A stretch of DNA of 64,000 nt from a virus. Its lineage: Duplodnaviria; Heunggongvirae; Uroviricota; Caudoviricetes. Below the pieces are notes generated by a model that worked only from the letters and a program-made list of their open reading frames with translations, searched no databases and was not told the DNA's origin. Below are positions 17,360-46,833 of the stretch, one piece after another (the first letter of the stretch is position 1; every line of letters starts with the position of its first letter). Location: the IMG/VR virus record IMGVR_UViG_3300022753_000047; one strand, given 5' to 3'. The position numbers and the translations under genes are program-made.

Positions 17360-18231
17360 ACGCCGCCCATCCTTTCATAAAACTCGACTGTGTTTTCCAT
17401 CAGCATAGCCACAGTCATTGGCCCGATGCCACCGGGAACAGGGGTGTAGGCATTACAGTATTCGTAAATCAGCGGATCAATATCGCCACAGAGTTTCCCG
17501 TTCTCGTCACGATTCATACCCACATCCACAAAAACTTGTCTACCCAAATGAGCAAACTCACCGTAGTGTTCCATGGCATTAAAGGTCAATGTGTCTCTGC
17601 AACCAGTTGCAGAAACGATAATATCGGAGGAGCCGACATATCTGTACAACTCATGCTGAGGAGTTTTGCTGTGGCACAGGGTCACGGTGGCACCAGCCTG
17701 TTCCATCATTCTGGCAATCGGTCTGCCTACGATGTTGCTTCTGCCAATGATACAAACAGCCTTACCAAGCAGAGTGACGCCATTTGCTTCGAGCAAGCGG
17801 ATAATTCCCTTTGGCGTACACGGGTAGTGATACGGCGTTTCGCCGTTAGCCAAAGCAGCAACATTGACCTTGGATGCAAAACCATCCACATCACACATAG
17901 GGTCGATGTATCGGGTGAGATCACGCAGTTCTACCTCACCGTTCATCGGCATCTGGAAGATGATTGGTTTGTTTTCTGCGCAATTCTCAGCCACATCCTG
18001 GTCTGTGAGTTCATGCAGATGCTTCACGATTGGGCAAATACCAATCTCTTTGCATCGCTTGATTTTGTTTCTCACATAAACCAAACCGGCATCGTTATCG
18101 CCGCTCGTGATAATCATTAACTCTGGCTGAACGCCGGACTCCTTGAGCTTATCCACTCGCAGCTTGAGGTTGCTACAAATGCTGTCAGCTAACAGCTTTC
18201 CGTTCAGGATTGTCATTGCCTGCACCTCCAA
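17356..18231 (-). CDS. folD: bifunctional methylenetetrahydrofolate dehydrogenase/cyclohydrolase FolD
   Basis: GKAVCIIGRSNIVGRPIA (NADP-binding) plus YVRNKIK and VDVG motifs. Length 291 aa. Confidence 0.8.
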   Translation of the reverse strand: MEVQAMTILNGKLLADSICSNLKLRVDKLKESGVQPELMIITSGDNDAGLVYVRNKIKRCKEIGICPIVKHLHELTDQDVAENCAENKPIIFQMPMNGEVELRDLTRYIDPMCDVDGFASKVNVAALANGETPYHYPCTPKGIIRLLEANGVTLLGKAVCIIGRSNIVGRPIARMMEQAGATVTLCHSKTPQHELYRYVGSSDIIVSATGCRDTLTFNAMEHYGEFAHLGRQVFVDVGMNRDENGKLCGDIDPLIYEYCNAYTPVPGGIGPMTVAMLMENTVEFYERMGGV

Positions 18232-18769
18232 TAATCTGATCGAGTGTCCTTGGTGTGTAGTCCATCCAAGGCATCATGGCGCCAACATTGAACATCAGAC
18301 ACTTATGCCCGTACAACTCCTGCATGAGGTACTTGGTATGCTCCATCATGTTGGCTTCAAAAGAATTATGTACATGACCATACAGGTGATACCACCCGTA
18401 GAAATGGTTCTTGAAGCAGGGAATTGGATAGTGGCACAGGACAACTTTGCGTCCGTTGTCCTCGACCTCAAGATACTCGGTAACCTTGACAAACTGCTTC
18501 GTAAATCTTCCGTCATTGCAGCGGTCGTGGTTTCCTTTAATCAGGAACTTCTGACCATTCAGCTTCTGCAAAATCGGAATTGCAAGATTTGAATTACACC
18601 AGAACATATCTCCAAGAACATAGACAATGTCTCCTGGCTCCACGACGCTGTTCCAACGCTTAACAAGCGTCTCATTCATCTGCTCAACAGACCGGAAAGG
18701 GCGGTTGTCAAAGGCAATGATGTTGCCATGCCCATAGTGCCAGTCTGAAATATAAAATTTCCTTGACAC
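18185..18769 (-). CDS. metallophosphoesterase (calcineurin-like)
   Basis: DWHYGH...GDMFW...GNHD motif series. Confidence 0.65.
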   Translation of the reverse strand: MSRKFYISDWHYGHGNIIAFDNRPFRSVEQMNETLVKRWNSVVEPGDIVYVLGDMFWCNSNLAIPILQKLNGQKFLIKGNHDRCNDGRFTKQFVKVTEYLEVEDNGRKVVLCHYPIPCFKNHFYGWYHLYGHVHNSFEANMMEHTKYLMQELYGHKCLMFNVGAMMPWMDYTPRTLDQIIGGAGNDNPERKAVS

Positions 18770-27679: not shown

Positions 27680-28543
27680 TTACAACCAGCGCTCTACAAA
27701 CTCTCTGTCTTGTGTGAAGATGGGGATTTCTCTGTCGATGACCCAACGACGCCGGGTAACATTGACAATCTCGTCATTATTTCTGGGATTCGGCTTTGGT
27801 GCCGTCTCCGTAACACGATAGCAACAGGAGCCACGCTTGCAGTCTGTGGGGTAGTCGTTCCAGTTGACACCCTTTTCAGACCACAGCATTTCCTGGATCA
27901 TGTTGCAAGTCTTTTCGTGGAGCTGTTTGGCGCTGAAATACGCTTGTCCAGCAGCTTCGATGCTGTTGCGGGTCGCATCTTGCTGACGCCAAATCAGGCA
28001 GTTGCAAACTTCATCTTTGGGGATGGAGAAAACCCGTGCATCAAACATGGCCGACCAGAACTTGCGCTTGAGCTTGTCGTGGTAAACCATCCTCGCTGCA
28101 CAAACACGAGCCATATCTTCTTGGGCGACACCCATAAGCTCGGTTACATCATTGAGATAACCATCGACCTCTTCCGTAAAGAAGCGGTTAAACGCAACCG
28201 TCGCCATGGATGCCGCAACGCTGGTCATTTTCTGAACATTGTAGCCGAACCAAGCATCGGTGGTGATGGTCGCATAGTCGGTGAGAACCAGTGTGATTTC
28301 ATCGGACTGGGTATAGCCAAACACACAGCCCTGGATGTTCTTACACAGGAACTGCATGGTACGCTGCATGGTTGTCATCATGACCTTGTCAAAGGGTTTC
28401 TTCATGCCCTTTGTGAATGTATGAAACGCTTTGCCGTCAAGGCGAATGATGACAGGGACTCGACGGGTCAGATAAGTACGAGGTACATACTCGTAATTTT
28501 GCTTCATGCGGTCGCCGAGGGAGTCAGCTTTCTTTTTACCCAT
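27680..28543 (-). CDS. tRNA(His) guanylyltransferase Thg1-like protein
   Basis: N-terminal YEYVPR...VPVIIRLDGKAFHTFTK matches the Thg1 fingerprint (..VRiDG..F..F..). Confidence 0.6.
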   Translation of the reverse strand: MGKKKADSLGDRMKQNYEYVPRTYLTRRVPVIIRLDGKAFHTFTKGMKKPFDKVMMTTMQRTMQFLCKNIQGCVFGYTQSDEITLVLTDYATITTDAWFGYNVQKMTSVAASMATVAFNRFFTEEVDGYLNDVTELMGVAQEDMARVCAARMVYHDKLKRKFWSAMFDARVFSIPKDEVCNCLIWRQQDATRNSIEAAGQAYFSAKQLHEKTCNMIQEMLWSEKGVNWNDYPTDCKRGSCCYRVTETAPKPNPRNNDEIVNVTRRRWVIDREIPIFTQDREFVERWL

Positions 28544-29942
28544 TGCCCATGACCTCCTGATATTTTTCTTTTACCAAATACGAAACCAGAGCCACACGCT
28601 CATTGGGAAGTTCGCCGTTAATTACTTTCTCAAGAACCTCATTCAACACAACGCCGACGGCCTTGCCTTCAGAGAGGTACAGGAGATTCATCACATCGTG
28701 ACCGTCAATCGCAAGGTCTTTGAGCTTAAAGCACTGGTTGTTCTTGATGACCTCTTCCAGAATGACTCCGAGCGCTGCGCACCGTTCGATTCTGGATTCT
28801 TGTGTGTCTTTGGCGTGAGCTTGAATGTCGGCCATACGGATGTTCAGCAAGCGGACGAACTGTTTTTCACCGATCTTGTTGAGCCATCTGCGAACCGTCT
28901 TTGGAGTAGGCTCAATAATAGCATCGTGGTGCAAAACAAGCTCCAAAATGTCCGATTTGGATTTATTATCAAACCGGAGTTTGGTAAGCACTTTTTCGGA
29001 AATATCATGGCTAAAAACGCCATGACCGTAGAAATGGCCGCCCTTTTCATCTTCTGTGTAGCAGTGGGGCTTGCCAATATCATGCAGGAGCAGTGACATC
29101 TTAACTACGATATCGTCGCCGTCATAGTTGGAAACCGCATGGGCGATATGCTCGTAGACATTGTACTCGTGGAATCGGTTGTTCTGATCGAAACCGACAC
29201 ACGGCTGCATTTCCGGGATGATGGTGGTAATTACATCGTTGTACTCCAGAAGTACATTGAGGACACCCTTGCCGCAGAGCATCTTGCACAGCTCAGACTG
29301 GATGCGCTCAGCGGCGATGTTTTTAAGAAGCTCTTTATTCCGGTGGATGGACTGAGATGTTTTCTCTTCGATAGTAAACCCATAAGTTGAAGCAAACCGC
29401 ATAGCTCTTAGGATACGAAGTGCATCTTCGTTAAACCTGTCGTCCGGGTTTCCAACACAGCGTATCACACCGTTTTTCAAGTCTTCACGACCGTGAAACG
29501 GGTCTACCAAACCGGCCTGATTAAAGGCCATTGCATTGATGGTGAAGTCCCTGCGAGACAAATCCTTATAAATGCTGTCGGTAAACTCCACACTGTCAGG
29601 ATGTCGGTTGTCCGAGTAATCTCCGTCGATACGAAATGTGGTGACCTCAAACTTTCCAGACCGCTCCATGTCTACCGTAATCGTGCCGTGTTTCAGGCCG
29701 GTGTCGATGGTTCGCACACTGCAGCGAGCGAAGTATTCCTTCATTTCCTCCGGCGTTGCCGAAGTGCAGATATCCCAATCCTTGGGTTCCAAACCCAACA
29801 GGCTGTCACGAACACAACCACCGACCACATATGCTTCATGGTGTGCATACCGAAGACCCTGCACGATGACCTTAGCACCACGAGGAATTGTGATCTTACA
29901 CATCGATTGCCCTCCTGTTAATTGACACGATGAACTCCTCAA
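28536..29942 (-). CDS. cca: CCA-adding enzyme / tRNA nucleotidyltransferase with HD domain
   Basis: GGCVRDSLLG, DWDICT and RRDFTINAMA head-domain motifs. LLLHDIGK HD motif. Confidence 0.8.
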   Translation of the reverse strand: MRSSSCQLTGGQSMCKITIPRGAKVIVQGLRYAHHEAYVVGGCVRDSLLGLEPKDWDICTSATPEEMKEYFARCSVRTIDTGLKHGTITVDMERSGKFEVTTFRIDGDYSDNRHPDSVEFTDSIYKDLSRRDFTINAMAFNQAGLVDPFHGREDLKNGVIRCVGNPDDRFNEDALRILRAMRFASTYGFTIEEKTSQSIHRNKELLKNIAAERIQSELCKMLCGKGVLNVLLEYNDVITTIIPEMQPCVGFDQNNRFHEYNVYEHIAHAVSNYDGDDIVVKMSLLLHDIGKPHCYTEDEKGGHFYGHGVFSHDISEKVLTKLRFDNKSKSDILELVLHHDAIIEPTPKTVRRWLNKIGEKQFVRLLNIRMADIQAHAKDTQESRIERCAALGVILEEVIKNNQCFKLKDLAIDGHDVMNLLYLSEGKAVGVVLNEVLEKVINGELPNERVALVSYLVKEKYQEVMGNG

Positions 29943-30927
29943 CCTTTTTCATGTCGGGAGCAACGGGAAGAGAGGTGTTGTTTTTGGCGTAGGCCAAGCG
30001 TTTCTCGTATTCAGAAACCATTTCAAAGAACTCCGGTTTGTAAGTTCCGTCTTCGTTCTGATACTTACCATTCCGAATTTCCAGAAGCATCTCTCTGTCG
30101 CTTTCTCTGTATGTCCTGATTTCTTCCTTTTCCAGAATATCAAGGCACATCAGATACAGGCGGATCAGGTGCATGGCGTGCTTGTTGAGATGGTTGTCGT
30201 CTTTCTTGTGGTTCCGATGATTCAGCTTTTCATAGTTGCCAATCACATTTGACAAGGTGTTCATCATAATGCTGAACTCTCTTGCCGGATATTTGTCGAG
30301 GTGGATGTTGCAGTAAACCTCACGGTCGAGGTCATCTCGTGGACTTTCGTCCGTAAACAAAGTGATGCCGCCGTTATCGAACACAGTGTATCTGTCACCA
30401 AAAGCCTTGAGCGCACGCTCCATGGCCTTTCGGATGTGTTCTTCATTGTCTGCCTGGGACATCCTATCTCTGGCGAGAGCATTTTCCAGACGGCGAAGCT
30501 GTTGTGTTGCGTATCCACCAAATGAGTTGACTGCTTTCTGAGAAAGAAAGAGATGCCGATTATCGATCATCTCCTGACCAGCCTCAGACACGAAGAAGTA
30601 GTGTTCGGGCTTACAGCCGAGCAGCTCAATCGTGTTAGGATTGCAGTTGAGCAGGAGACTTACCAACTTGTTGAAGCCGTAAATCGTTGTATCGGTCTGG
30701 GTGTTTACTACCTGCTCGAAATTGGAAAGGCCAAGCAGATCGCTTTTGCTGTTCATGGCACAACCACGGACATCTACATCAGAAGTCTCAATGTTTGTAC
30801 CGTATGCGTAGCTGCCACCAAGCGTCAGGAACATGATGCGCCCCGACAAATGTGGGTTTGTCCTCAGAAAATCATACGATTCTCCGCTAACCATTTCTTT
30901 GATCTGTTCGATGGTCAAGCGATCCAC
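29896..30927 (-). CDS. nucleotidyltransferase (Pol beta superfamily, minimal NTase fold)
   Basis: GSYAYGTNIETSDVDVRG is the G[SG]x9-13DxD NTase signature. Confidence 0.55.
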   Translation of the reverse strand: MDRLTIEQIKEMVSGESYDFLRTNPHLSGRIMFLTLGGSYAYGTNIETSDVDVRGCAMNSKSDLLGLSNFEQVVNTQTDTTIYGFNKLVSLLLNCNPNTIELLGCKPEHYFFVSEAGQEMIDNRHLFLSQKAVNSFGGYATQQLRRLENALARDRMSQADNEEHIRKAMERALKAFGDRYTVFDNGGITLFTDESPRDDLDREVYCNIHLDKYPAREFSIMMNTLSNVIGNYEKLNHRNHKKDDNHLNKHAMHLIRLYLMCLDILEKEEIRTYRESDREMLLEIRNGKYQNEDGTYKPEFFEMVSEYEKRLAYAKNNTSLPVAPDMKKVEEFIVSINRRAIDV

Positions 30928-31442
30928 CTCCTGTAATTCTTAAAATGTTGTATAAGTGACTCCACTCCCGGCCTCACCACACACCTTTACGCTGTGCCAT
31001 ATTACCACCACAGCATGACCTCTTGTGCCATGCCAGTAGTCCTTTCAGCCTTTCTATCGGGGAGCAGGGGGGTTAGTGTTTCCCGTCTTAGCTTACCAAG
31101 GTATTTCGGTGTACCGATATATACACCCGTTGCACCTCTCCCAGCCTCCGCAGAGAACTGGGCCGTTACCATCTGTGTGCGGCCATGGCCTGTGCGCAGC
31201 TTCCGCACTCCATCAGTGGTACAACGCCACCTAACCGCTCTTTTCTTTAACGCCCGGTCACATCATTTGAGTTTTGGTTTCTTGTTTACCGCCGTGTTTC
31301 CCTCACGGCATCATGCACCCGGTCAGTTTTTATTTTATGGACGAGTCAGAACCGTCACTCGTCCCGATGTGCCACCTTGGAATCCGACCGCCACTCACAG
31401 CCGTGATATGTTATCTCAATCGGGCCAAACATATAGACACGA
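30928..31442 (-). ncRNA. candidate structured non-coding RNA (515-nt ORF-free gap inside the operon)
   Basis: No minus-strand ORF. The plus-strand ORF is Pro/Arg/Ser-rich and reads like non-coding sequence. Multiple strong hairpins: GGACGAGT-N10-ACTCGTCC, GCCGTG-N7-CACGGC, a GGCCATGGCC palindrome, GTGCG-N7-CGCAC. Confidence 0.3.
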
Positions 31443-31946
31443 TTAGTGCTTGCTGATAACCCGCTTGAACTTCAGCTCGCTGTTTTCGATATACTCGTCA
31501 ATCAAACGGCTCTGTTCCTTGGTTTCCGCATACGCAGTAATCGTGATTGTTTTCTTACTCCAATCCAGTGTGTAGGTATCAGCCGCCACATTGGTTACAT
31601 GATGCTTTGCCAGAAAATCTCGGAGTTTCTTCATTGCCTGCAAGTCATCTGACATAATCACATTCACATAGGTTTTCTCTTTAGAGAACTTGTTGCTTAC
31701 TGCAACTGCCAGACAGCATCCAACGCCACTGGCAATCGACACAACGATCAGTGCAAAACTGTTATCGGTTGTGACAATGTTTTTCGTGATGCAAAGGTAC
31801 AGGAAATTGGATAATCCCAACGCCAGTCCGGCCAGAATACAGCGATTGCGCTGAACCAGAATCGTCTTGGCAGTACCCAACATATTGTCGATTACCTTTG
31901 CAACGAACAGGATTGTAAAGTAAATCCACCCAGTCAAAAATATCAC
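31443..31946 (-). CDS. UPF0316/DUF2179-family membrane protein
   Basis: Two to three N-terminal TM helices, followed by a soluble C-terminal domain. Confidence 0.45.
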   Translation of the reverse strand: MIFLTGWIYFTILFVAKVIDNMLGTAKTILVQRNRCILAGLALGLSNFLYLCITKNIVTTDNSFALIVVSIASGVGCCLAVAVSNKFSKEKTYVNVIMSDDLQAMKKLRDFLAKHHVTNVAADTYTLDWSKKTITITAYAETKEQSRLIDEYIENSELKFKRVISKH

Positions 31947-32278
31947 TCCTAACTCTTATCTCTCACTCTTTTGACCAGGATTAGCATTGTAATGCTGGCA
32001 TCAAGTGCGCTTATATCTCTTGTGTCACAATGGCTGGGAAGAAACCCAGATTTCAAACAGAAAATTTCCACGGTGGCATATCGCCTTGTTTACCCCATGG
32101 GCAACGATCTTAGCCGTCACTTGTCTGGTCACGCAGTAAGGTCGCTTCGACAGGCACCAGACTATTTTCCCCTTACCCGGATACCGATATCACCTAAGTC
32201 GGAAGGGTGTGTAATAGGTTCTTTTGTTAGAGGTGCGCCACAAGCCGTACACACTCAGCTCCCTATGAAACATTCGTT

Positions 32279-33370
32279 TTATTCGTCGTTTGCCAGCAGG
32301 AAATCGGGGTTGATGACCTTGAAACTGATGTCGGGGTCATAACTCCGCATAACCACGCCTTCTCGCTTCTGTCCGGCGAGCAGAGTGGAAGTACCCTTGG
32401 CATACTCCACCAGGTCAGCAATGGTCTCGGGCAGAACTTTACCCTCCTCCAGAACGGGAACCGCCTTGATGCTAAATGGATGCAGCAGTCGTGCAATTTC
32501 TCTGGTATCGCACTTGCGGTCAGGGAAAATCAGGTTAAATGCGTAGAAATCGTAGCTATTAACCCGATATTTGTTCTTTTGGATGCCGGGGCCGATGATT
32601 TCTCCCTGCAAAACGATGCGGTCATGGTCACCAATGAGCTGCATCAGCACAGACTTAATGTCGTACTTGGCAGCGATTGACCAGTAAGAACTGTTGTCGG
32701 GCTTACCCAAACGAATGTTTCGGGAGCATACGCCGAACTCATATTTCTTACGACCGACTTTTTCCAGGAAGTATGTAGCGGACTGACCGTCGATCTTCTC
32801 CGTAACCATGAAACGAGTACCGTTCTTTTTCTCGTTCTCGAACATGGTAGTCTTGTTCTGGATGCGTTCCTCGTCAGTCTTGACGATCCATGCAGGGAAG
32901 CCTTTCTTCTTGGGCTTCGGGCCGAAACACTTACGGAACCAACGGAACCTCATCATGAACTGGAACAGCTTGCCGTACTGTTTCACACGGCTGTCATCTG
33001 CACAGGCCAGAAGCTGACGCTCCTGCTCAGCCTGCGGGTCATATTTCTTGATGCCCAGGATTTCCGTTACATCCATATCCAGCGCATAGGTGCCGGGAGG
33101 AAGGATGCTCATGGGGAGAACCAGACCCTGGGAGACCTGTTTGCGGAGCTTGATGGTACGAACACGGAACTTTCTATCCCGCAGGAACTCAAACTCTGGT
33201 CGGTCAGGCACGATGGAATCCACTTCGATGTAGACAATGTGCTGGCCAACTGCAAATTCGCCTTTCTGGACAACGCACTCCCAGCCATCAACCTGTGCAA
33301 CCTCGATCCGGTCTGCACCAGGGATGGGGCGAATATCTGAGATAGTGCGGATGGTTGCTAACCTTCGCAT
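32279..33370 (-). CDS. ATP-dependent RNA ligase, Rnl-type (DraRnl-like) with N-terminal OB/tRNA-binding-like domain
   Basis: Motif I KIDGQS (TEKIDGQSATYF). N-terminal RLATIRTISDIRPIPGADRIEVAQVDGWECVV resembles tRNA-binding OB domains. Confidence 0.55.
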   Translation of the reverse strand: MRRLATIRTISDIRPIPGADRIEVAQVDGWECVVQKGEFAVGQHIVYIEVDSIVPDRPEFEFLRDRKFRVRTIKLRKQVSQGLVLPMSILPPGTYALDMDVTEILGIKKYDPQAEQERQLLACADDSRVKQYGKLFQFMMRFRWFRKCFGPKPKKKGFPAWIVKTDEERIQNKTTMFENEKKNGTRFMVTEKIDGQSATYFLEKVGRKKYEFGVCSRNIRLGKPDNSSYWSIAAKYDIKSVLMQLIGDHDRIVLQGEIIGPGIQKNKYRVNSYDFYAFNLIFPDRKCDTREIARLLHPFSIKAVPVLEEGKVLPETIADLVEYAKGTSTLLAGQKREGVVMRSYDPDISFKVINPDFLLANDE

Positions 33371-35138: not shown

Positions 35139-35591
35139 TTAGATTTTATATAAGGTAAGATGATGCTCACGAAAAACATCCGTCAGCATATCCAGAACCT
35201 TTCCCCAATCGCCACCACCGAGGCCGCAACCAATTCTGTAAGGCATGGCAATCGTGTTGCCCGCCTTGACATTGGCCGCAATCTCTCTGCAACCACAGCG
35301 CAAAGCCTCGAAGTTGGTGTACTTCTTGCCATCCCGGCCAAACTGGAACTGACCAAAAATGTTGATGATGGCAGTGTTCTCATTTACACGAACGCCCTGA
35401 ATCTGCCCAAGCAGAGCTTCTCGGTTGTTCGCATGGTCATCACAGACCTTTTTGTATTTGTCAAACACCTCTGGCCATTTGGCACGAATCTGCTTGGCAA
35501 CACCACTGCCCATGACTCCCTGGCAGTTGACCTGGTGGCATATGTATTGTGCAGAAGACTCCATCAAGTCCCCGTTAATAATCCGAATCAT
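35139..35591 (-). CDS. macro domain protein (ADP-ribose binding / hydrolase)
   Basis: IINGDLMESSAQYICHQVNCQGVMGSGVAKQI matches the macro N-terminal motif (GDIT...VNAAN..L.GGGV). Confidence 0.7.
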   Translation of the reverse strand: MIRIINGDLMESSAQYICHQVNCQGVMGSGVAKQIRAKWPEVFDKYKKVCDDHANNREALLGQIQGVRVNENTAIINIFGQFQFGRDGKKYTNFEALRCGCREIAANVKAGNTIAMPYRIGCGLGGGDWGKVLDMLTDVFREHHLTLYKI

Positions 35592-36466: not shown

Positions 36467-37762
36467 TTATCCGTAGCTAATATCATCTTTGTCGGTTCGC
36501 AGGGAAACAAAAACAGGAAACTGCAAACTGCGGTTCCCTGTGGACTTATCAAACGATATTTCCTTGTATTTCACTTCGGCAAGAACGCCGGTGACCTCTT
36601 CCTGGTGCGACCAGAACCACGCTCTCTGTTCATCCGTAAACCCGGAGCCAACTCCTACTTCAACGCCGTCGTAATCGACTACGATAGCGCCGAGAGTATT
36701 GGACAACTTACCCGTTCCGGCCTCACATCGAATGATGGGCAAGTCCATGGTGTAAAACCGCTTCACTTTTAGGATACCGCCGTGCCGTTTGCACTGGTAA
36801 GGAACATCAAGATTGACCATCAATCCCTCTTTGTCTTCGTTTACCATGCGTTCCAAAAGTGGAGCGATTACAGATTGATCTGTTCCGCAATACAATGCAG
36901 GAAGCACACGAACATGGTCGTTTCCTTGCAGTTCAGAAGCAAGGCGATCCAACTGCTCTCGCCGTTCACTGTATGTTGCGGAGCTTACGCCACGATCAAA
37001 CTCATAAACGGGTAAAACATCAAAAACCGTGAAGCAAACCTGTGTTTTATCATCGTTTTCAGAGTTGACAATTCCCGTGGTTATGCGGAATGCTTCATTA
37101 TCGGAGTGGCCACCTTTGTGCTTTAAGGTCAGCTCTCCATCAAAAACCAACTCTGAGTAAGGTTCAAGCACATTTACAATGTGATCGAGGCCATTCAGCA
37201 CAGTTCCACTGCGACCACGCAATTCTCCACGGTAAAGTGTAGCCCGAACTCCATTCAGCTTCTCAGAAACCGAGAACCATACCCCATCTTTCAGCGGATG
37301 CTTTTCAATAGGATATGCCTGCTGAACCTCCCACTCAGGGATAAGACCAGGAATGGCTTTGTTTACGCTCTTAGCAGTGACACCAAGCCGCAGGGTCTTG
37401 GCGAGAAGTTTCTTGAACATCTCACGATACCCCTCGTCTTGTGTCTCCAGAAAAGCAAGGACTTGATACACAGTCGCATCGTCCAGAGCTTTTCTTTTGC
37501 TGAGCGTTTCACACACCTCAAAGATTGAAGTAAATGTGAGAGTGATTGCTGGATTATACACGCATCTTTGGAACAGTGTTGCTTCCGACACCTTATAGGA
37601 AAGCAGCGGATGACAGGCGTAGTAAAGCAACTGCCTAAAAATACTGTCATCCTTGTTCTGAGCCATGATTGACAGCTTTTCCTTTGATCCGCGTGCTTCT
37701 TGCAGTCTCTTCATTTCAGCTACTGCATTATGCAAATCGCCCATTGTTGCTCCCGCCTCCAT
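36467..37762 (-). CDS. ATP-dependent DNA ligase-family protein
   Basis: Ligase motifs: I KLNGVR (Asn in place of Asp), III FDGELTL, IV EGLMVN, V LKVKRF. C-terminal OB domain. Confidence 0.6.
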   Translation of the reverse strand: MEAGATMGDLHNAVAEMKRLQEARGSKEKLSIMAQNKDDSIFRQLLYYACHPLLSYKVSEATLFQRCVYNPAITLTFTSIFEVCETLSKRKALDDATVYQVLAFLETQDEGYREMFKKLLAKTLRLGVTAKSVNKAIPGLIPEWEVQQAYPIEKHPLKDGVWFSVSEKLNGVRATLYRGELRGRSGTVLNGLDHIVNVLEPYSELVFDGELTLKHKGGHSDNEAFRITTGIVNSENDDKTQVCFTVFDVLPVYEFDRGVSSATYSERREQLDRLASELQGNDHVRVLPALYCGTDQSVIAPLLERMVNEDKEGLMVNLDVPYQCKRHGGILKVKRFYTMDLPIIRCEAGTGKLSNTLGAIVVDYDGVEVGVGSGFTDEQRAWFWSHQEEVTGVLAEVKYKEISFDKSTGNRSLQFPVFVSLRTDKDDISYG

Positions 37763-37846: not shown

Positions 37847-38587
37847 TTAAGGCTGGCTGCCGTATGCGGGCATAGGTTTCAGTTTGTGCAGATTCTTTCT
37901 GTGAAGACCCTCGATCAAACGCTCGTGTCTCTCAATGGCACAACATCCATCCATGATGTATCTGTCGATTTCCTGATAGCTGACGCCGAGATTGTCCTCG
38001 TCTGTCTTGCCGCACAGGCCATCGGAAGGAACCTTATCAACCAGGTCTCTGGGAATGGGAAGCTCATGGCCGATTTCCAAAACCTCATGAACCATCAGAT
38101 TGGAAAGTGGGCTGAAGTCACCAACACTGTCACCAAACTTTGTGGAATACCCTACAAAGTCTTCGGAGCGGTTACAAGTATTGGCAACACGACCGCCCTC
38201 CGGCAGGGACTGAGCCACTGCATACAGAGTGGTCATGCGGATGCGGGGAGGAATGTTGACAACCGTCTGCTCGCTTACCTGCATAATACCGCTCAGCTCT
38301 TCCATCAGAGCAAAGACGGTGCTTTCAATGTTGACCACTTTGTAGTTGATACCGAGAGCTTCAACGAGGCGATGGCTATCATGAATATCAGACTGTTCAC
38401 CGTTCGGCATCAGAACACCCACAACACGATCCTTGCCAAGCGCTTCGACACACAGAGCAGCCACAACACTTGAGTCTTTGCCGCCGGAGATACCGACAAC
38501 AGCAGAGCAGTTCGGCCCGTTTTCGGCAAAGTAGTCTCTGATCCACTGAACGATTTCATCTTTCGTTCTCTTAGGGTTTGCAAGCAT
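37847..38587 (-). CDS. nadE: NH3-dependent NAD+ synthetase NadE
   Basis: PP-loop VVGISGGKDSSVVAAL. 246 aa. Confidence 0.8.
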   Translation of the reverse strand: MLANPKRTKDEIVQWIRDYFAENGPNCSAVVGISGGKDSSVVAALCVEALGKDRVVGVLMPNGEQSDIHDSHRLVEALGINYKVVNIESTVFALMEELSGIMQVSEQTVVNIPPRIRMTTLYAVAQSLPEGGRVANTCNRSEDFVGYSTKFGDSVGDFSPLSNLMVHEVLEIGHELPIPRDLVDKVPSDGLCGKTDEDNLGVSYQEIDRYIMDGCCAIERHERLIEGLHRKNLHKLKPMPAYGSQP

Positions 38588-38598
38588 AGCGACCCTCC

Positions 38599-40086
38599 TT
38601 AGAAATTGCCGTTGTGCAGATTATTTCTCACATCTGCCAGAGTGTACTTGGTAACAAACTCGCCATCTTCAAAGACGGGGACAAGTTCATTGTTATCCTG
38701 TGCCTGTGCCCATGTCAGACCGTCTTCATAAGCATAGCCGTCAGCGGTCTTATACACACGGCAGCAACCACGCTGAGATTTCTTGAAATGACCGGAATCG
38801 GTCTTGGGGTTCTTGAAAATCATAATGGGAGCGCCGTTTGCATCCTCAGCATAGGTGGCCTTGACGGCGATGCCGAATGTGTCACGGGTATAGGGGTTGT
38901 ACTCTGTTCGGAAGTCTGCAATGGTTTCCAGACACTGCATAGAGAACGAACCAACGCCCAAAGAAACATTGTTAATTGCAAACCCATTCCGCTCCAGGCG
39001 CTTATAGATTTCTTCGCATCTCTGTGGCGTAATGCTGTCGCCGTAGATGGCTTTCACATGAGGATTCAGCACCTTAAATCCCTTGCTGTTGACAGTGCCA
39101 CCGAAGATGTCCCACAGCTTAAACACGGTCTGTGTTACAACCTCAACAGGGTTGCCACTGTCGCCACGGATGGAGATAAATCCATCGTGCGCAAGGATTT
39201 CGTCCTTGAGCTGAGGAAGAATGTTATCCACCAGATTCCAGTAGTCGTAACTGTCGCTCACCATTGAGAAACTTTGGTGAGGATAGACCTCAGTCAGCAG
39301 GCGACGAACATGGGTGATTTCGTCTCCGTCGATGGCAAAGTTGGAACACATAACGCTGTGCTCAGTGGACAGGGCGCCAAAAGCAACCGGCTCTGTGGAA
39401 CTGTCACACAGGTAGTTGTCCTCCAACCAAAGGATGGCGGGAACAGTTGCCGTATTCAGAAAACTGAGGCAGAAAGCGGCAGAACTCTTGGTTGCACTCT
39501 CAACACTCTCCTGGCCACGCATAGAAAAATCGCCAAGGAGTCTTGCACGGGGCACGCTGTCATCACAGGTGCGATCAGCAAACTCATTGACGATCTGACG
39601 ATAACGATAACCGACTTCTGCGGAAACCTGCGTGTGCCACATGGTACAGGACAGCATGGTTTCAATGGAATTAACCAACCACACAAAGTCGGGATGTGTG
39701 TTGGAGATTTCGATCTGTGGAACCTTAATATCAGAGCGGGTTCCTTCGGGGAGTGCTCTGATTTTCAGAGGCAGATAACCGAGATTGTAGAGTTTCTCGA
39801 TGCGCTCCTCGCCAACACCGTTCGTGCCGATAGTGGCGTTGAGCACACGCTTGTACTCTTCCAGAACCTTGGGATAGGGCTTGTCAAAGAAGTTCTCATT
39901 GAACGCATCGATGAGATACTCCTGAATGAACGCCTGCAGACCAAAGAGAGTGATCTTCCCAGTGTCCTGGAGTCTGGACATTCTGGGCGTATAGTAGGAG
40001 ACCATTTTGGTCAGTCCCTTGGGGTACTGATCTGCGTGGGCGGTCTTGTAAAAATCCAGACACAGCAGAGGATTGTAATGTATCAT
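38599..40086 (-). CDS. nicotinamide phosphoribosyltransferase-family protein (NAMPT/NadV-like; alternatively a Namat-type enzyme)
   Basis: 495 aa. N-terminal DFYKTAHADQYPKG is typical of NAMPT. Confidence 0.7.
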   Translation of the reverse strand: MIHYNPLLCLDFYKTAHADQYPKGLTKMVSYYTPRMSRLQDTGKITLFGLQAFIQEYLIDAFNENFFDKPYPKVLEEYKRVLNATIGTNGVGEERIEKLYNLGYLPLKIRALPEGTRSDIKVPQIEISNTHPDFVWLVNSIETMLSCTMWHTQVSAEVGYRYRQIVNEFADRTCDDSVPRARLLGDFSMRGQESVESATKSSAAFCLSFLNTATVPAILWLEDNYLCDSSTEPVAFGALSTEHSVMCSNFAIDGDEITHVRRLLTEVYPHQSFSMVSDSYDYWNLVDNILPQLKDEILAHDGFISIRGDSGNPVEVVTQTVFKLWDIFGGTVNSKGFKVLNPHVKAIYGDSITPQRCEEIYKRLERNGFAINNVSLGVGSFSMQCLETIADFRTEYNPYTRDTFGIAVKATYAEDANGAPIMIFKNPKTDSGHFKKSQRGCCRVYKTADGYAYEDGLTWAQAQDNNELVPVFEDGEFVTKYTLADVRNNLHNGNF

Positions 40087-40313
40087 TTCTTCTTACCCTC
40101 TTTCAAATTTTTAGGAATGCCATATTTTGCAAAGTACAGGGCAAAGGCAAATGGTGCGGCAACAGGCCATAAAACTCCCATAACCACGCAATATCCAGCC
40201 TTGTCATGCCAACCTCTGCCATAGTCGCTGTCAGCGAAAATATACAGATAGTACAATGCAAATGTAACAAATGCACCAACGCAAATGTATAAAAGCATCA
40301 GCAGAAAAATCAC
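40083..40313 (-). CDS. small membrane protein
   Basis: 76 aa, 2 TM helices. Confidence 0.4.
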   Translation of the reverse strand: MIFLLMLLYICVGAFVTFALYYLYIFADSDYGRGWHDKAGYCVVMGVLWPVAAPFAFALYFAKYGIPKNLKEGKKK

Positions 40314-41515
40314 TCTTCGTCACCTGCCTTAAAGTTGTAGATAGGCTTGATGACTGCTTCGATTGTGACTGTAGGCTCGATGTTGTCAACAATATCGGAC
40401 ATATTCTTATATGCCATCGGACACTCGTCAAGCGTGCTCCTACCAACAGAAGTGGTGTAGATACCGTCCATCTGTTTCTTGAACTCGGACACAGTAAAGG
40501 TCTGCTTTGCCGCACTGCGGCTCATCAGACGACCAGCACCATGAGGAGCTGAACAGTTCCAGTCTTCGTTGCCCTTACCAACGCAAATCAGACTGCCATC
40601 TCTCATGTTAATGGGGATCAACAGCTTTTCACCTGCCTGCGCAGAAACTGCACCCTTGCGGAGGATCATGTTATCCACATCGATGTAGTTGTGAATGGTG
40701 GTGAACTGCTCAACAACATGGAAGCCCATCTCTTTTACGATGGTGTCCATCATAGCCTGACGATTGAGGTTTGCAAACCGTTGAGCAATACGCATATCAT
40801 GCAGATACTGCTCAAAAAGCTCGCCCTCCACATATGCAAGAGGCTTCGGAATAGGCGAATGCTTGGACTTCAACTGCTTGAGAACGCTCTGAATCTCTTT
40901 CTGACGGCCAGCAGCTTTCAACTCCTCGACCTTTGCATCAATTTCCTCTTTGCTGTACGAGGTTAATGCTTTGTATGCTGCTTCCTGATAGAAGTTAGCA
41001 ATTTCAAGGCCGAGATGACGGCTGCCGGAGTGAACTACGATGTATATGTTTCCAGCATCGTCTTGGTTTGCCTCAATGAAATGGTTACCACCGCCGAGCG
41101 TGCCAATGCTGCTGTATGCACGGTCGATGTTTACCTTTTTGGCGCAGCAAAGCTCTGACAGGTCGATATCCTTGGCAAATCGGTGTTCCTTTTTACGAAT
41201 CTCAAACCCGGATGGAATACCAGCACGAATTACCTTGTCCAACTTCTGCGGCTCGATATGCGCTTCCTTGATGCGGATCGTTTCCATTCCGCATCCGATG
41301 TCCACGCCAACGAGGTTGGGGCAAATCTTATCCTTGATTGTCATAGTGGTGCCAATGGTGCATCCTGCTCCGGCGTGAATGTCCGGCATCATACGAACTC
41401 GGCTGCCCTCAATATAGGGCTGGTTCAAAAGGTTAATTACCTGCGAAATCGACTCGTTGTCAACCACATCGGTAAACACCTTGGCAGTTGCGTATTTGCC
41501 CTGCAACTCAATCAT
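40310..41515 (-). CDS. rtcB: RtcB-family RNA 3'-phosphate ligase
   Basis: DIHAGAGCTIG, GGGNHFIEAN and SAPHGAGR motifs. Confidence 0.8.
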   Translation of the reverse strand: MIELQGKYATAKVFTDVVDNESISQVINLLNQPYIEGSRVRMMPDIHAGAGCTIGTTMTIKDKICPNLVGVDIGCGMETIRIKEAHIEPQKLDKVIRAGIPSGFEIRKKEHRFAKDIDLSELCCAKKVNIDRAYSSIGTLGGGNHFIEANQDDAGNIYIVVHSGSRHLGLEIANFYQEAAYKALTSYSKEEIDAKVEELKAAGRQKEIQSVLKQLKSKHSPIPKPLAYVEGELFEQYLHDMRIAQRFANLNRQAMMDTIVKEMGFHVVEQFTTIHNYIDVDNMILRKGAVSAQAGEKLLIPINMRDGSLICVGKGNEDWNCSAPHGAGRLMSRSAAKQTFTVSEFKKQMDGIYTTSVGRSTLDECPMAYKNMSDIVDNIEPTVTIEAVIKPIYNFKAGDEE

Positions 41516-41535
41516 AGGCTTGCCCTCCTTGAGAC

Positions 41536-42339
41536 TTACTGAATGACGGACACCTTCTCGTGCTCGCCACGGAAAATGCTTTCGGATGTGAACACATGGG
41601 TAATCAACCCATCTGTCAGAACTGAACCATCACGAATGGTATTTTCGCAATGGGTAACATAGAGGAAAATGTTTTCCGCACCAGCCTCTTTCAAAGCCTT
41701 TGCGGTGTGGGTAAATGTGCCACCACGGGAACAGATATCATCAACGATAAGGACGGTTCTGCCCTCGACTTTATCCGCACCAACCAGTTCGAGCTTCTGG
41801 ATTTTGCCAGTACGCCAATCTCTGTGCTTGATGCCGAACACATAGTCGCCCTGGATTTGGGAAGAGTACCGCTTCGATGCACCCTCATCGGGATAACAAA
41901 GCAGAATGTCCTGCTTACCAAAGGTTTCCCGGATATTCTTCATTACAAACTCTTCCACGCATCTGGTTACACCAATCGACTGGAAGCGGTTAATCAGAGC
42001 TTCAGACACACTGGAGTGAGGGTCATACGCCGTAACCGAGTCAAACCCCAGTGCGTTGATGAAGTCGGCAAACCACTTGAGCGTAAACACTTCGTCGCCA
42101 CTTTTCACCCTATCCATTCTGGCATTGGGGATATAGGGCATAATGAGGTTGATTTCCACGGAACGGTCTCTGTTTGAACGAATGTGGTTGGTAAGGTGCC
42201 AGACGAGAATACATTCGTGGTCACCATCATACAACCACTTAATATCATAGGTCATTGCCTTACCAGTGTCAAACCGGAATGAGGTTGTACCGTCGGGAAA
42301 AGAGGTAAAACTGACTTCCTTTCCGTTCACGAAAATCAT
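41536..42339 (-). CDS. ribose-phosphate pyrophosphokinase-family protein (Prs-like; possibly an ADP-ribose pyrophosphokinase)
   Basis: PRTase motif RTVLIVDDICSRGGTF. LIMPYIPNARMDRV compares with AVIPYFGYARQDRR. Shorter (267 aa) than canonical Prs. DPHS replaces DLHA. Confidence 0.65.
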   Translation of the reverse strand: MIFVNGKEVSFTSFPDGTTSFRFDTGKAMTYDIKWLYDGDHECILVWHLTNHIRSNRDRSVEINLIMPYIPNARMDRVKSGDEVFTLKWFADFINALGFDSVTAYDPHSSVSEALINRFQSIGVTRCVEEFVMKNIRETFGKQDILLCYPDEGASKRYSSQIQGDYVFGIKHRDWRTGKIQKLELVGADKVEGRTVLIVDDICSRGGTFTHTAKALKEAGAENIFLYVTHCENTIRDGSVLTDGLITHVFTSESIFRGEHEKVSVIQ

Positions 42340-42340
42340 A

Positions 42341-42904
42341 TTACGCCTCCCAGTTCTCGATGTTGATCTGGCACATCTTCATGGCAGCCAGCGCATTTGC
42401 ATGGCTCTCAGGAGTGACTCCAGCACAGCAGGCCGCATCAACAGACAGCTTGACTTCGGGCAGGAACGCCTTGATGAGCATGGCGTTGGAAATGACGCAG
42501 ATGTCAGTACACAGACCGACGAGCGTGATCTCTTCGATTGGATTTTTCTTGTTCATCTGAGCCAGCCAATCGGCAAGCTCGATGGAGCCAAAAGTGCCTT
42601 TCAGGAACACCTCGGCATCTTTGCCCTCCTTGGTGACCTTGGCATCGATAGCCTCATACACATCCTTGTGCAGTTCCCAGCCATCACTCAGATGACTGCA
42701 GTGGACAACGGGAAGCAGGCGACCTTCCTGAGTGTTGAGGTAATCCTCATAATGCGTATCATGCGTTACCGCATAAACGCCATCGAAGTTGTTGATTTTC
42801 TGGACAACATTGGGAACGATCTCCTGCGCTTCCTTAGAACCAAGAGCGCCAGAGATGAAGTCACCCTGCATATCCACGACTACGAGAACCTTCATTCTTC
42901 GCAC
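42341..42904 (-). CDS. isochorismatase-family hydrolase (nicotinamidase PncA-like)
   Basis: VVVDMQGDF (Asp) and GLCTDICV (Cys) catalytic motifs. Confidence 0.6.
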   Translation of the reverse strand: MRRMKVLVVVDMQGDFISGALGSKEAQEIVPNVVQKINNFDGVYAVTHDTHYEDYLNTQEGRLLPVVHCSHLSDGWELHKDVYEAIDAKVTKEGKDAEVFLKGTFGSIELADWLAQMNKKNPIEEITLVGLCTDICVISNAMLIKAFLPEVKLSVDAACCAGVTPESHANALAAMKMCQINIENWEA

Positions 42905-43895: not shown

Positions 43896-43986
43896 TGGCT
43901 GGGGTAGCAGGACTTGAACCTGCGGTCGAGGGTAAACCTCTTGTCGGAGTCAAAGTCCGATGCCTTACCAACTTGGCGATACCCCA
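43896..43986 (-). tRNA. tRNA, type II (long variable arm, G73); anticodon reads UUG by hand fold
   Basis: Acceptor TGGGGTA/TACCCCA. T-arm GCAGG-TTCAAGT-CCTGC. CCA encoded. Anticodon stem TCGGA/TCCGA with loop CTTTGAC. 20-nt variable region. Confidence 0.55.
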
Positions 43987-44622: not shown

Positions 44623-45297
44623 TCAAATCGGCACCACTTTATTAAAGAGAGCAACGAACTGCTCATTTACCTGCTTGTCAACATGGTAATGGCCGAAATA
44701 CCACCTCTTGAACTTAAGCTCTGAATAGATACGCTCAAGAAAGCTCACGACCGGATCGTTTTCATACCATGGTGAGAGAAGCATTTGAACACTTCGAGGC
44801 GCACAGTGAGTGATGGCATAGTCAACCTTCCAATTTACCGCATCGAGACTGGATATGGCATACTCCATCTCTTCTCTGGATGGGATTTCTTCTTTCCACC
44901 AGGAAATATGCTCAATGCGATGCTCTTTGTCGATTGACCTTGCACCACCCATGACAAATATCTTCTTTCTGTCGATTGTCAAAACCTGACCTCTTTCCAG
45001 ATGATAAATGTCCGGTGCAATCTCTCGCACATAGCCGCCGAACTTCTTTTTCAGTGGCATACAACGGAGGATATCGAAGTTTTCATGGTTGCCATCAACG
45101 AAAAGCGTTACGAAATTCTTGTTTGATAGCCAATCTTGCCAGTATATCTCTCTGGCAGAGCCGTCCCACACAAGGCCAAAGTCACCACAAATAATGAGGT
45201 AGTCTTTTTTCGTTAGCTCTTTTTGTTGTGGAAAGTTCGTAGTGTTCAGTTTACTTATGTCGATATTGGCATGGGTATCGCCAGTGACATAAATCAT
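44623..45297 (-). CDS. metallophosphoesterase (lambda-phosphatase-like)
   Basis: GDTHAN...GDFG...GNHEN motifs. GGAGGTG RBS. Confidence 0.6.
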   Translation of the reverse strand: MIYVTGDTHANIDISKLNTTNFPQQKELTKKDYLIICGDFGLVWDGSAREIYWQDWLSNKNFVTLFVDGNHENFDILRCMPLKKKFGGYVREIAPDIYHLERGQVLTIDRKKIFVMGGARSIDKEHRIEHISWWKEEIPSREEMEYAISSLDAVNWKVDYAITHCAPRSVQMLLSPWYENDPVVSFLERIYSELKFKRWYFGHYHVDKQVNEQFVALFNKVVPI

Positions 45298-45696: not shown

Positions 45697-46833
45697 TTAT
45701 CGCAAATCTTCTCGGATATCCCGCAGAACATCTGCGCCCATTTTTTCGTTGATATGTTTGATGATGCCGTCGATGGCATCCTTTTCTACCATGCGGTAGT
45801 AGTTGTAGTAGCCGTCCAGAACCTGAACATCATGCTTATCCCAAGAGACGCCATTTCTGCGATCCAGAATGTAGCTGTGCAGCATACTCTGGAACTGGCG
45901 CTTTCTCTTGTGGCCGACAGTGATTTCGTTGTCCTTGTTCAGCATCACTCCGAGATTCCAATTCCGTCCTGCGGAGGAACCATATCTCGTCTTGGCACTG
46001 TTAATAGTGAATGGCGCATTGAACTCGGCCAAAACATCCACAACGGCCTTTTCAATCGCCCTCACATCAAAGGTGTACTTTGAGGAGATGATAAAATCGT
46101 CGGCATATCTTGTGTATGTATAGCTCTGCTTTTCAAAATCCCTAAACTTATTTGCCAACTTATAATCAATAGGAATCATCATAACATTGGTGATAAGCGG
46201 AGAAATCGGGGTTCCCTGCGGGAGACCACCATTCAGAAAAGCCAGTTCAAGAGCAGTTCTCAGTTCGCTTTTACCGATCTCGTACTTGACGATTTCACTG
46301 AACGGAAAAATCATACTGAACTGTTGCATGACAAAGTCAATGGTTGTACTTCCAAAGAAGTTGGACAGGTCATACTTACCAAACCACTTGCTGTCATTTT
46401 TCTGGTGACGCTTTACTGCATCGATTGTGCTTCTACCTTTCACATATGCAAACGCAGAAGTGTGATAAAGCGTGTGGAAATACTCTTCAAAGATGGTTTT
46501 CAGCCTTCGGAGTGCATCCATCAGTTCCGGCTGTGGGGCATCAATTCGGCGCAAGCCACCGCTTTTCTTAGGAATATAGAAAGTGGTGTAAATATCTTCA
46601 CGCTTTTTCTCACGAAGCGTAGCTGTGCTCTCATTGAAACGAACCAGATGCTGAATCAGCTCGGTTACATCAATGCTGTCCTTAAAACGATTGCTGATAT
46701 GATCGAACTCATAGGTTCTTGTGTTGCCAATATTACGATTGACGACCGGACTGTCTTCATAAGACTTAAACAAAAATTCCTCCAGTGTCATCTGGTGATA
46801 CATGGGGGATTGCATGACTGTGATGTAAACCAA
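45697..46833 (-). CDS. reverse transcriptase (retron/UG-type, not group II or DGR by motifs)
   Basis: RT motifs LPQGTPISPLITN (QGxxxSP) and YADDFIISS (YADD). 378 aa. No maturase (X) domain. Annotated start is TTG; the first ATG is at codon 7. Confidence 0.8.
   Translation of the reverse strand: MVYITVMQSPMYHQMTLEEFLFKSYEDSPVVNRNIGNTRTYEFDHISNRFKDSIDVTELIQHLVRFNESTATLREKKREDIYTTFYIPKKSGGLRRIDAPQPELMDALRRLKTIFEEYFHTLYHTSAFAYVKGRSTIDAVKRHQKNDSKWFGKYDLSNFFGSTTIDFVMQQFSMIFPFSEIVKYEIGKSELRTALELAFLNGGLPQGTPISPLITNVMMIPIDYKLANKFRDFEKQSYTYTRYADDFIISSKYTFDVRAIEKAVVDVLAEFNAPFTINSAKTRYGSSAGRNWNLGVMLNKDNEITVGHKRKRQFQSMLHSYILDRRNGVSWDKHDVQVLDGYYNYYRMVEKDAIDGIIKHINEKMGADVLRDIREDLR

Follow-up and report, generated by a model that had tools for sequence, protein, structure and literature searches.

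The viral DNA analysed here, a 64,000-nt stretch of IMG/VR record IMGVR_UViG_3300022753_000047 (Caudoviricetes; hereafter the window), carries at positions 37847–42904 a module of NAD+-metabolism genes that we read, with a probability of roughly 0.55, as a deamidated version of NAD+ reconstitution pathway 1 (NARP1). NARP1 itself, made up of the enzymes Adps and Namat, was described by Osterman et al. 2024 (bioRxiv 10.1101/2024.02.11.579819), and structures are available for both Namat (PMC12774641) and Adps (PMC13586617). In the deamidated version, a host NADase of the TIR, SIR2 or SEFIR type would cut NAD+ into ADP-ribose and nicotinamide, after which the phage nicotinamidase would turn nicotinamide into nicotinate, the Adps-like enzyme would form pyrophosphorylated ADP-ribose (ADPR-PP) from ADP-ribose and ATP, a variant Namat-like enzyme would combine nicotinate with ADPR-PP to give nicotinate adenine dinucleotide (NaAD), and NadE would amidate NaAD to NAD+. 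We infer these substrates and products, as well as a role in counter-defence, from gene content, family placement, residue changes and gene linkage. NAD+ reconstitution against host defence, the role already put forward in the original prediction made from the bare sequence, would still be the most reasonable one for the module.

All six open reading frames (ORFs) at 37847–42904 lie on the minus strand and follow one another almost without gaps; their positions and families had been correctly predicted, with family matches far beyond chance. In operon order, with lengths in amino acids (aa), they are:

42341–42904, minus strand: nicotinamidase-like protein (PncA-like, isochorismatase family), 187 aa; PF00857, E = 1.8e-19
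41536–42339, minus strand: Prs-like (Adps-like) protein, 267 aa; Prs-type domains, phrog_619 at 242 bits
40310–41515, minus strand: RtcB RNA ligase, 401 aa; PF01139, E = 1.6e-66, and phrog_1075 at 485 bits
40083–40313, minus strand: hydrophobic, predicted membrane protein, 76 aa; no Pfam match, weak match to phrog_4955 (function unknown)
38599–40086, minus strand: NAMPT-like (Namat-like) protein, 495 aa; NAPRTase and NAMPT_N domains, NF006629 at 457 bits
37847–38587, minus strand: NadE, NH3-dependent NAD synthetase, 246 aa; PF02540, E = 4.9e-52

In the same order, the first two junctions leave gaps of 1 and 20 nt, the next two are overlaps of 4 nt each and the last is a gap of 11 nt; this tight packing fits a single predicted transcript. 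A scan of the region for consensus promoters and terminators gave nothing decisive and no usable operon boundaries.

The base pocket of the NAMPT-like protein provides the first line of evidence. Alignment with the Namat proteins of SPbetaL1, FADO, a Felixounavirus, ICP1, a Kayvirus and a Pakpunavirus and with a NARP2-type Nampt placed two substitutions in the pocket that holds nicotinamide:

39448–39450, minus strand: codon of Ala213, equivalent to Asp215 of SPbetaL1 Namat and Asp219 of human NAMPT
39367–39369, minus strand: codon of Ser240, equivalent to Ala242 of SPbetaL1 Namat, in the nicotinamide pocket

The D215 region reads NTATVPA in the window protein against G[TS]D[TS]xPA in canonical Namat and Nampt (e.g. 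GTDTIPA), and the A242 region STEHSV against the canonical ATEHSV. Asp215 of Namat, like Asp219 of human NAMPT, hydrogen-bonds the amide of nicotinamide (PMC12774641, PMC7096376, PMC4442680); in the crystal structure of Namat, D215 and A242 are two of the six residues that make up the pocket for nicotinamide, and the D215A mutant of SPbetaL1 Namat forms 8.1-fold less NAD+ (PMC12774641). In NAMPT, this Asp is the accepted determinant of nicotinamide versus nicotinate, human NAPRT having Ser there (PMC7096376, PMC4442680).

The substitutions are not peculiar to the window. Close homologues of the NAMPT-like protein (at least 8000 scored candidates at E ≤ 1e-20, with 76–95% identity among the 120 matches listed) were uninformative on family structure, which appeared only on searching cluster representatives, the 150 nearest of which (50%-identity clusters, 36–82% identity to the query) were drawn from 1.84 billion. 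Their 215/242 pairs were D/A (91), A/S (33), S/S (19), V/S (1), A/G (1) and a handful of others, so that the two positions co-vary almost perfectly. On a neighbour-joining tree, the sequences lacking Asp grouped as a single 50-leaf clade, or about one third of the representatives, that included no D/A member; Ser occupies position 215 in 17 of the 50. The A/S state was common to all 81 close viral loci found in IMG/VR and GenBank (61–87% identity), and the combination of Asp215 and Ala242 that marks the Namat pocket was found neither in the window protein, nor in these 81 relatives, nor in the variant clade. The positions that best separated the two classes (183–187, 213 with Gly replaced by Lys or Asn, 215, 239–242 and 304) adjoin the pocket residues F189, D215, A242 and R306. 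The catalytic core (D13, Y15, F189, R192, H245, R306 and D308) is kept in the window protein and in 49–50 of the 50 variant-clade sequences, and G360 and D361 are likewise kept in the clade.

The selectivity clamp of canonical Namat comprises a stacking Arg, Lys or Tyr in the β1–β2 loop and a helix with the motif GSxΦxΦxΦTRD, its aromatics at positions 3 and 7 (PMC12774641). The window protein has the loop Arg (TPRMSRL) together with the GSF and TRD ends of the helix motif, which is interrupted by an insertion:

38881–38952, minus strand: selectivity-clamp helix region, GSFSMQC[LETIADFRTEYNP]YTRD, in which a 13-aa insertion splits the motif

Within the variant clade, R40 is present in 44 of 50 sequences and GS plus an aromatic at 390–392 in 49 of 50, with TRD at 398–400, and the conservation of R40, G390, S391, aromatic 392, T398, R399 and D400 equals that in canonical Namat; NARP2 Nampt has GGG...NRD instead. 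Insertions of 6–17 aa are confined to a derived subclade that includes the window protein, and basal members of the clade, among them the complete phage Phass-1, have none and show an intact canonical motif, e.g. GIGSYTYQYNTRD. Across the 81 close viral loci the insertion is variable, taking the form GSFSMQC[...]P[YF]TRD and spanning 9–25 alignment columns in the representatives displayed. An AlphaFold2 model of the Namat-like protein, of moderate quality overall (mean pLDDT 72) and below a pLDDT of 50 in the active-site segments, renders the insertion as a low-confidence β-hairpin and is too weak to say what its effect would be, and a Foldseek search with this model re-confirmed the fold and nothing further. 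Large insertions of another kind occur in ten canonical Namat representatives (P0158, P0159, P0189, P0191, P0192, P0194, P0200, P0204, P0250 and P0254); these are intein-like, about 280–340 aa long with C...HN boundaries, and have their hot spots just before the catalytic TEHSV and inside the clamp GS[FY]...TRD. A scan of viral contigs with one divergent, intein-bearing representative (P0143) as query yielded no confirmed locus.

The closest solved relatives of the NAMPT-like protein were SPbetaL1 Namat structures 9w5x and 9w5w (405 bits; the 9w5x sequence matches the SPbetaL1 genome at 100% identity by tblastn), with Haemophilus ducreyi NadV at 333 bits, Nampt of Xcc (Xanthomonas) at 174 bits and human NAMPT at about 140 bits. 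The H. ducreyi score weakened our use of bit scores for telling Namat from Nampt. This NadV (9ke8/9keo), which is regarded as a Nampt, reads GAQTYQRNTRD in the clamp region, between the Namat and Nampt types, and its score and intermediate motif together indicate that the sequence boundary between the two activities is less sharp than the published motif implies.

These observations bear on an alternative in which the module performs salvage of the Preiss–Handler type through phosphoribosyl pyrophosphate (PRPP): the nicotinamidase would supply nicotinate and the Prs-like enzyme PRPP, the NAMPT-like enzyme would form nicotinate mononucleotide (NaMN), and host NadD and phage NadE would complete NAD+. 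We regard this as unlikely, though far from negligible. It accounts equally well for the missing amide-binding Asp and for the link with nicotinamidase and NadE; NF006629, the NCBIfam family matched at 457 bits, bears the name nicotinate phosphoribosyltransferase; Namat keeps activity with PRPP (PMC12774641, bioRxiv 10.1101/2024.02.11.579819); the PRPP-using H. ducreyi NadV is a fairly close relative; and the clamp-helix insertion leaves the PRPP route most open for the subclade that bears it, to which the window protein belongs. Against it stand the retention of R40, the GS-aromatic and TRD, the intact canonical clamp of the basal members and the character of the partner enzyme, which looks like Adps rather than Prs.

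By blastp, the Prs-like protein scored 155 bits (37% identity) with SPbetaL1 Adps, 139 with FADO Adps, 117 with ICP1 Adps and 68 with Escherichia coli Prs, the SPbetaL1 and ICP1 enzymes being biochemically verified references. Against the Prs model TIGR01251 (cut-off 113) it reached 99 bits, near the 106 and 98 of the verified Adps proteins, whereas E. coli Prs scored 423. The structures of ICP1 Adps assign the catalytic role to Lys185 on a hairpin and the adenine contacts to F18 and R87, and the family signatures are a remodelled PP loop, a short RF loop and the loss of the C-terminal α11–12 module (PMC13586617). Aligned to ICP1 Adps, the window protein keeps the equivalents of F18, R87, H121, D161, K185, D212 and D213, has the KHRDWRTGKI hairpin (KxRDxxTGKI) with the catalytic Lys, the PP loop DDICSRGGTF and a short RF loop, and stops at 267 aa without the α11–12 module of Prs; F92 is kept neither here nor in the verified SPbetaL1 Adps. 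The replacement of DLHA by DPHS, noted in the original prediction, is indeed present at residues 106–109. The profile phrog_619 was dropped as a discriminator, E. coli Prs also scoring 193 bits with it. By its sequence, the protein is an Adps, and these scores and residue signatures place the Prs-like and NAMPT-like pair on the Adps/Namat side of their families, as had been predicted, and not with housekeeping Prs and NadV.

Gene linkage across viral loci forms the second line of evidence for the deamidated pathway. Viral and phage loci with at least 4 kb on each side were classed by their 215/242 state and their flanks were searched by tblastn. NadE and nicotinamidase were both found in 134 of 135 variant loci, the sole exception (L145) having no detectable NadE, and neither was found in any of the 21 canonical D/A loci; the Adps-like gene was present in 135/135 and 19/21, respectively. 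A gene for the Adps-like enzyme in every variant locus speaks against PRPP salvage, in that the hosts have a Prs of their own and phages with NARP2 carry none. The linkage holds through changes of gene order, down to 42% identity to the window protein and through the replacement of NH3-type by glutamine-type NadE. The nicotinamidase gene is upstream in part of the loci and follows NadE in the rest, and the S/S-type loci have their Adps-like gene downstream. In the complete phage Phass-1 (OQ749652.1), the operon comprises nicotinamidase, Prs-like, NAMPT-like (A/S), HAD-like and NadE genes. A Fisher test on the linkage gave 4e-25, which is not readable as a probability because the loci share one origin of the switch. 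With linkage to the variant pocket this close to complete, NadE and PncA appear to provide indispensable steps of one deamidated pathway. The original prediction had instead seen a canonical NARP1 pair to which NadE and nicotinamidase add a deamidated branch, a description at odds with the changes of D215 to Ala and A242 to Ser and with the contrast between variant and canonical loci.

The same contrast bears on the possibility, improbable in our view, that the module runs canonical NARP1 chemistry (nicotinamide plus ADPR-PP to NAD+) while nicotinamidase and NadE boost the deamidated salvage of the host. The pair does belong to the Adps and Namat families with core and clamp conserved, and Ser240 might bind the amide; against this, D215A cuts NAD+ synthesis by SPbetaL1 Namat about 8-fold (PMC12774641) and the nicotinamidase of the operon would draw on the same substrate as Namat. 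Among 50,697 phage records, homologues of NadE numbered 50 and of this nicotinamidase 9, compared with 1559 for the Adps-like protein and 2042 for Namat/Nampt. NadE and PncA are missing from about 1500 phage records and from all 21 D/A loci, yet near-constant in variant loci, a pattern unlike that of an optional add-on.

Nicotinamidase and NadE would open and close the deamidated route. The nicotinamidase has Pyrococcus horikoshii pyrazinamidase/nicotinamidase 1ILW as its best solved relative (E = 5.5e-11), to which it aligns with conserved catalytic Asp (VVVDMQGDF) and Cys (GLCTDICV) and an alignable Lys, and it keeps the D-x-H...H metal site (HDTH...VVHC). Its score with the NCBIfam PncA equivalog model was 37 bits against a cut-off of 174, and its assignment is therefore based on motifs and gene context. 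NadE reached 177 bits with TIGR00552 (cut-off 63.65), has an SGGKDS PP-loop from residue 34, and is most similar among solved structures to P. horikoshii 2E18 (150 bits) and Francisella tularensis 3FIU (125 bits). Directly downstream of NadE, at 36467–37762 on the minus strand, lies a gene for an ATP-dependent (not NAD+-dependent) DNA ligase, so ligation by the phage would not depend on NAD+ levels. No nicotinamide mononucleotide (NMN) adenylyltransferase was detected in the 64-kb window, in line with what had been noted before: the best tblastn match to a phage NadM had E = 0.55, no HxGH motif occurred in any frame, and a Pfam scan of 40 window ORFs, in which ORFs under about 150 aa fell outside the scan, showed no cytidylyltransferase-like or NUDIX domain.

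Several points weigh against the nicotinate route. The 13-aa insertion sits in the very helix associated with ADPR-PP preference, and the donor specificity of the subclade may differ. H. ducreyi NadV, a functional bacterial Nampt, scores high enough that similarity alone cannot fix the donor substrate. As to the acceptor, Ser240 could take over the hydrogen bond that the missing Asp would make, with nicotinamide kept as substrate. The residue switch arose once, so the contrast of 134 loci against none reflects retention in a diversifying clade and not independent events. Francisella tularensis NadE, one of the closest solved relatives of the window NadE, prefers NaMN. There is no earlier report of the reaction of nicotinate with ADPR-PP to NaAD, and the route is longer and consumes more ATP, with no apparent benefit to the phage.

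A seventh gene, absent from the original prediction, probably belongs to the module as a predicted ADPR-1''-phosphate phosphatase (Adpp-like):

35139–35591, minus strand: macrodomain protein (Adpp-like); PF01661, E = 1.2e-7, and phrog_335, E = 1.3e-38

In the known system NARP1-AP, which comprises Adps, the macrodomain phosphatase Adpp and Namat, Adpp converts ADPR-1''-phosphate into ADP-ribose (bioRxiv 10.64898/2026.01.28.702374), and the window protein would probably widen the input of the pathway in the same way. It shares 28% identity (E = 1e-13) and the motifs HQxNC, MGxG and GCGLxGGDW with the characterised Adpp of Vibrio phage Gary, and 32% identity (E = 1e-23) with the NARP1-adjacent macro protein of Pseudomonas phage Adele; its best NCBIfam match, the DarG macrodomain (75 bits), was below cut-off. 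The homologue is present in 77 of the 135 variant loci, and most relatives carry it immediately between NadE and the Namat-like gene, as opposed to 2.3 kb off the operon in the window. In Phass-1, the slot that holds the macrodomain gene in most relatives is taken (7784–8203 of its locus, minus strand) by a gene whose 139-aa product has a DxDxT motif of the HAD type (FDFDDTVF) and may be a non-homologous phosphatase in the Adpp-like position.

The variant module also occurs in bacteria. A scan of one genome per species returned 54 loci, nearly all from gut Clostridia (Lachnospiraceae, Oscillospiraceae, Ruminococcus, Christensenella), and the 215/242 state was A/S in all 52 that covered both positions. 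Some of these loci are phage-like, L189 sharing 12 genes with the window and L191, from an Oscillospiraceae isolate, sharing 8, and they suggest gut Clostridia as the host group of the phage. Others, in Pseudoruminococcus, Konateibacter and Lachnospiraceae genomes, have a non-phage chromosomal context and adjoin a gene for NrtR. In Pseudoruminococcus massiliensis (L218, 8632–14324), the order is AgrB, nicotinamidase, Adps-like, Namat-like, NadE, NrtR (NUDIX plus NrtR winged helix) and esterase; a Lachnospiraceae metagenome-assembled genome has nicotinamidase, Adps-like, Namat-like and NrtR genes followed by aspartate carbamoyltransferase, and the chromosomal Clostridia module of locus L229 (8637–12401) ends with NrtR. 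The NadE of P. massiliensis is the two-domain, glutamine-dependent enzyme, and the presence of a canonical two-domain NAD synthetase in this slot speaks for NadE acting here by amidating NaAD. NrtR represses NAD genes and responds to ADP-ribose; if it does so here, ADP-ribose is indicated as the input of the module, and this association, like that with the Adpp-like macrodomain, argues against PRPP salvage. The chromosomal modules suggest housekeeping recycling of NAD+ breakdown products. That the variant clade as a whole would consist of nicotinate ADP-ribose transferases, acting with nicotinamidase, Adps and NadE in a widespread four-step pathway that recycles both products of NAD+ cleavage and serves both as an NrtR-regulated housekeeping operon of gut Clostridia and as a counter-defence module of the large, abundant phages infecting them, is a tentative claim to which we give slightly less than even odds.

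The NrtR-adjacent chromosomal modules can also be taken to mean that the phage acquired an NrtR-regulated salvage operon from Clostridia and uses it for general NAD+ supply, raising NAD+ for its own metabolism, and the window does hold other metabolic genes (FolD and cysteine desulfurase). We consider this highly improbable as an account of the module. It concerns purpose, not chemistry, and is compatible with deamidated NARP1; if ADP-ribose is the input, the pathway runs only while NAD+ is being cleaved; and the module is surrounded by genes of the counter-defence type, namely an RNA-repair suite, the macrodomain gene and tRNA genes.

The RtcB gene does lie within the NAD+ module, as first reported, but its being embedded there is not a general feature: RtcB and the 76-aa gene were found in only 18 of the 135 variant loci, in which, among close relatives, RtcB stands between the Adps-like and Namat-like genes, and homologues of the 76-aa protein (49–53% identity) occur only in related loci with RtcB. 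Its presence in a minority of loci marks RtcB as a lineage-specific, dispensable insertion and not a component of the pathway, and the two genes would represent an unrelated RNA-repair insertion, with RtcB probably acting in tRNA or RNA repair. We considered whether RtcB works together with the NAD genes and rejected the idea, RtcB being missing from most relatives and the phage having a separate RNA-repair suite:

27680–28543, minus strand: Thg1-like tRNA-His guanylyltransferase
28536–29942, minus strand: CCA-adding enzyme
29896–30927, minus strand: RlaP nucleotidyltransferase
32279–33370, minus strand: RNA ligase with PHA02142 OB domain

Together with RtcB and 12 tRNA genes, this suite (27680–33370) suggests defence against anticodon nucleases. 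RNA-repair genes also lie beside NARP1 in other phages, an RNA ligase gene in both Adele and Gary and a polynucleotide kinase gene in Adele as well, so that the co-location of RtcB looks like a clustering of counter-defence genes.

The window derives from a large phage, with its 12 tRNA genes, nearly all genes on one strand, and a DNA polymerase III alpha subunit, primase and helicase. A near-identity nucleotide search of the 5-kb region against the 50,697 phage records gave no match, and the nearest record by protein was MT835544.1, an unannotated human-faecal contig. Beside the tRNA cluster lies a gene for a retron-type reverse transcriptase (45697–46833, minus strand; NF038233, St85-type, 183 bits against a cut-off of 235) that is kept at 57–71% identity in many related phage loci, and the tRNA-Gln(UUG) called by ARAGORN at 43896–43986 (minus strand) is unusually long at 91 nt, which could reflect an intron or a mis-call. 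Two calcineurin-like metallophosphoesterases are encoded on the minus strand at 44623–45297 and 18185–18769, the former recurring in close relatives some 6 kb away from the NAD module, at 64–78% identity. A MazF/PemK-type toxin homologue, for which no partner antitoxin was identified, is encoded at 10338–10823 (minus strand; PF02452, E = 6e-22). Phass-1, a distant relative, belongs to a TAG-recoding 'code 15' clade and has a suppressor tRNA; the window ORFs read normally in the standard code.

NARP1 has been known since 2024, and the Namat and Adps structures, NARP1-AP and the RyDEP accessory enzyme were added in 2026. The papers on NARP1, on the two structures, on NARP1-AP and on RyDEP make no mention of nicotinamidase, NadE or nicotinate, and a search of the full-text literature, in which few subscription journals are represented, found nothing joining NARP1 or ADPR-PP with nicotinamidase, NadE, nicotinic acid or NaAD, which points to the nicotinic-acid route as an undescribed variant of NAD+ rebuilding. 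Few outcomes of bacterial immunity are as common as NAD+ depletion, and the principal remedy known in phages is NARP1; the large Namat branch described here, with its rebuilt base pocket and fixed association with nicotinamidase and NadE, had gone unremarked. If the deamidated reading is right, NAD+ metabolism would gain a new intermediate and a new reaction, the formation of NaAD from nicotinate and ADPR-PP, and annotation that calls every Prs/Nampt pair 'NARP1' would need a check at the level of residues. It would also tie a phage pathway to a chromosomal salvage operon of gut Clostridia, with a bearing on the origin of NARP1, and raise the question of why some phages spend extra ATP in going via nicotinate.

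Among the known systems, NARP1 offers the closest comparison. The window module shares with it an adjacent Prs-like/Nampt-like pair of the same lineages, the Adps signatures, the Namat core and clamp residues, a phage-encoded setting and ADP-ribose as presumed input, and differs from it in the replacement of D215 and A242 by Ala and Ser, remodelled pocket neighbours, the 13-aa clamp insertion, the linked nicotinamidase and NadE, and a predicted transferase product that is NaAD and not NAD+. It resembles NARP1-AP in being accompanied by a homologous macrodomain gene, although this gene lies away from the operon, encodes a protein only 28% identical to Gary Adpp and goes with a deamidated remainder. 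NARP2 (NadV/Nampt plus NatV/Nmnat, Vibrio phage KVP40) likewise employs a Nampt-family enzyme in rebuilding NAD+ in infected cells; unlike in NARP2, no Nmnat was found in the window and a Prs-like gene is present, and its transferase is 27% identical to the NARP2-type Nampt of an Aeromonas phage, with GSF...TRD in place of GGG...NRD. The bacterial Preiss–Handler pathway (PncA, PncB, NadD, NadE) shares its first and last steps and its deamidated intermediates with the module, which, in contrast, is without a PncB-family enzyme or NadD, and in which the Adps/Namat-like pair would bypass NaMN.

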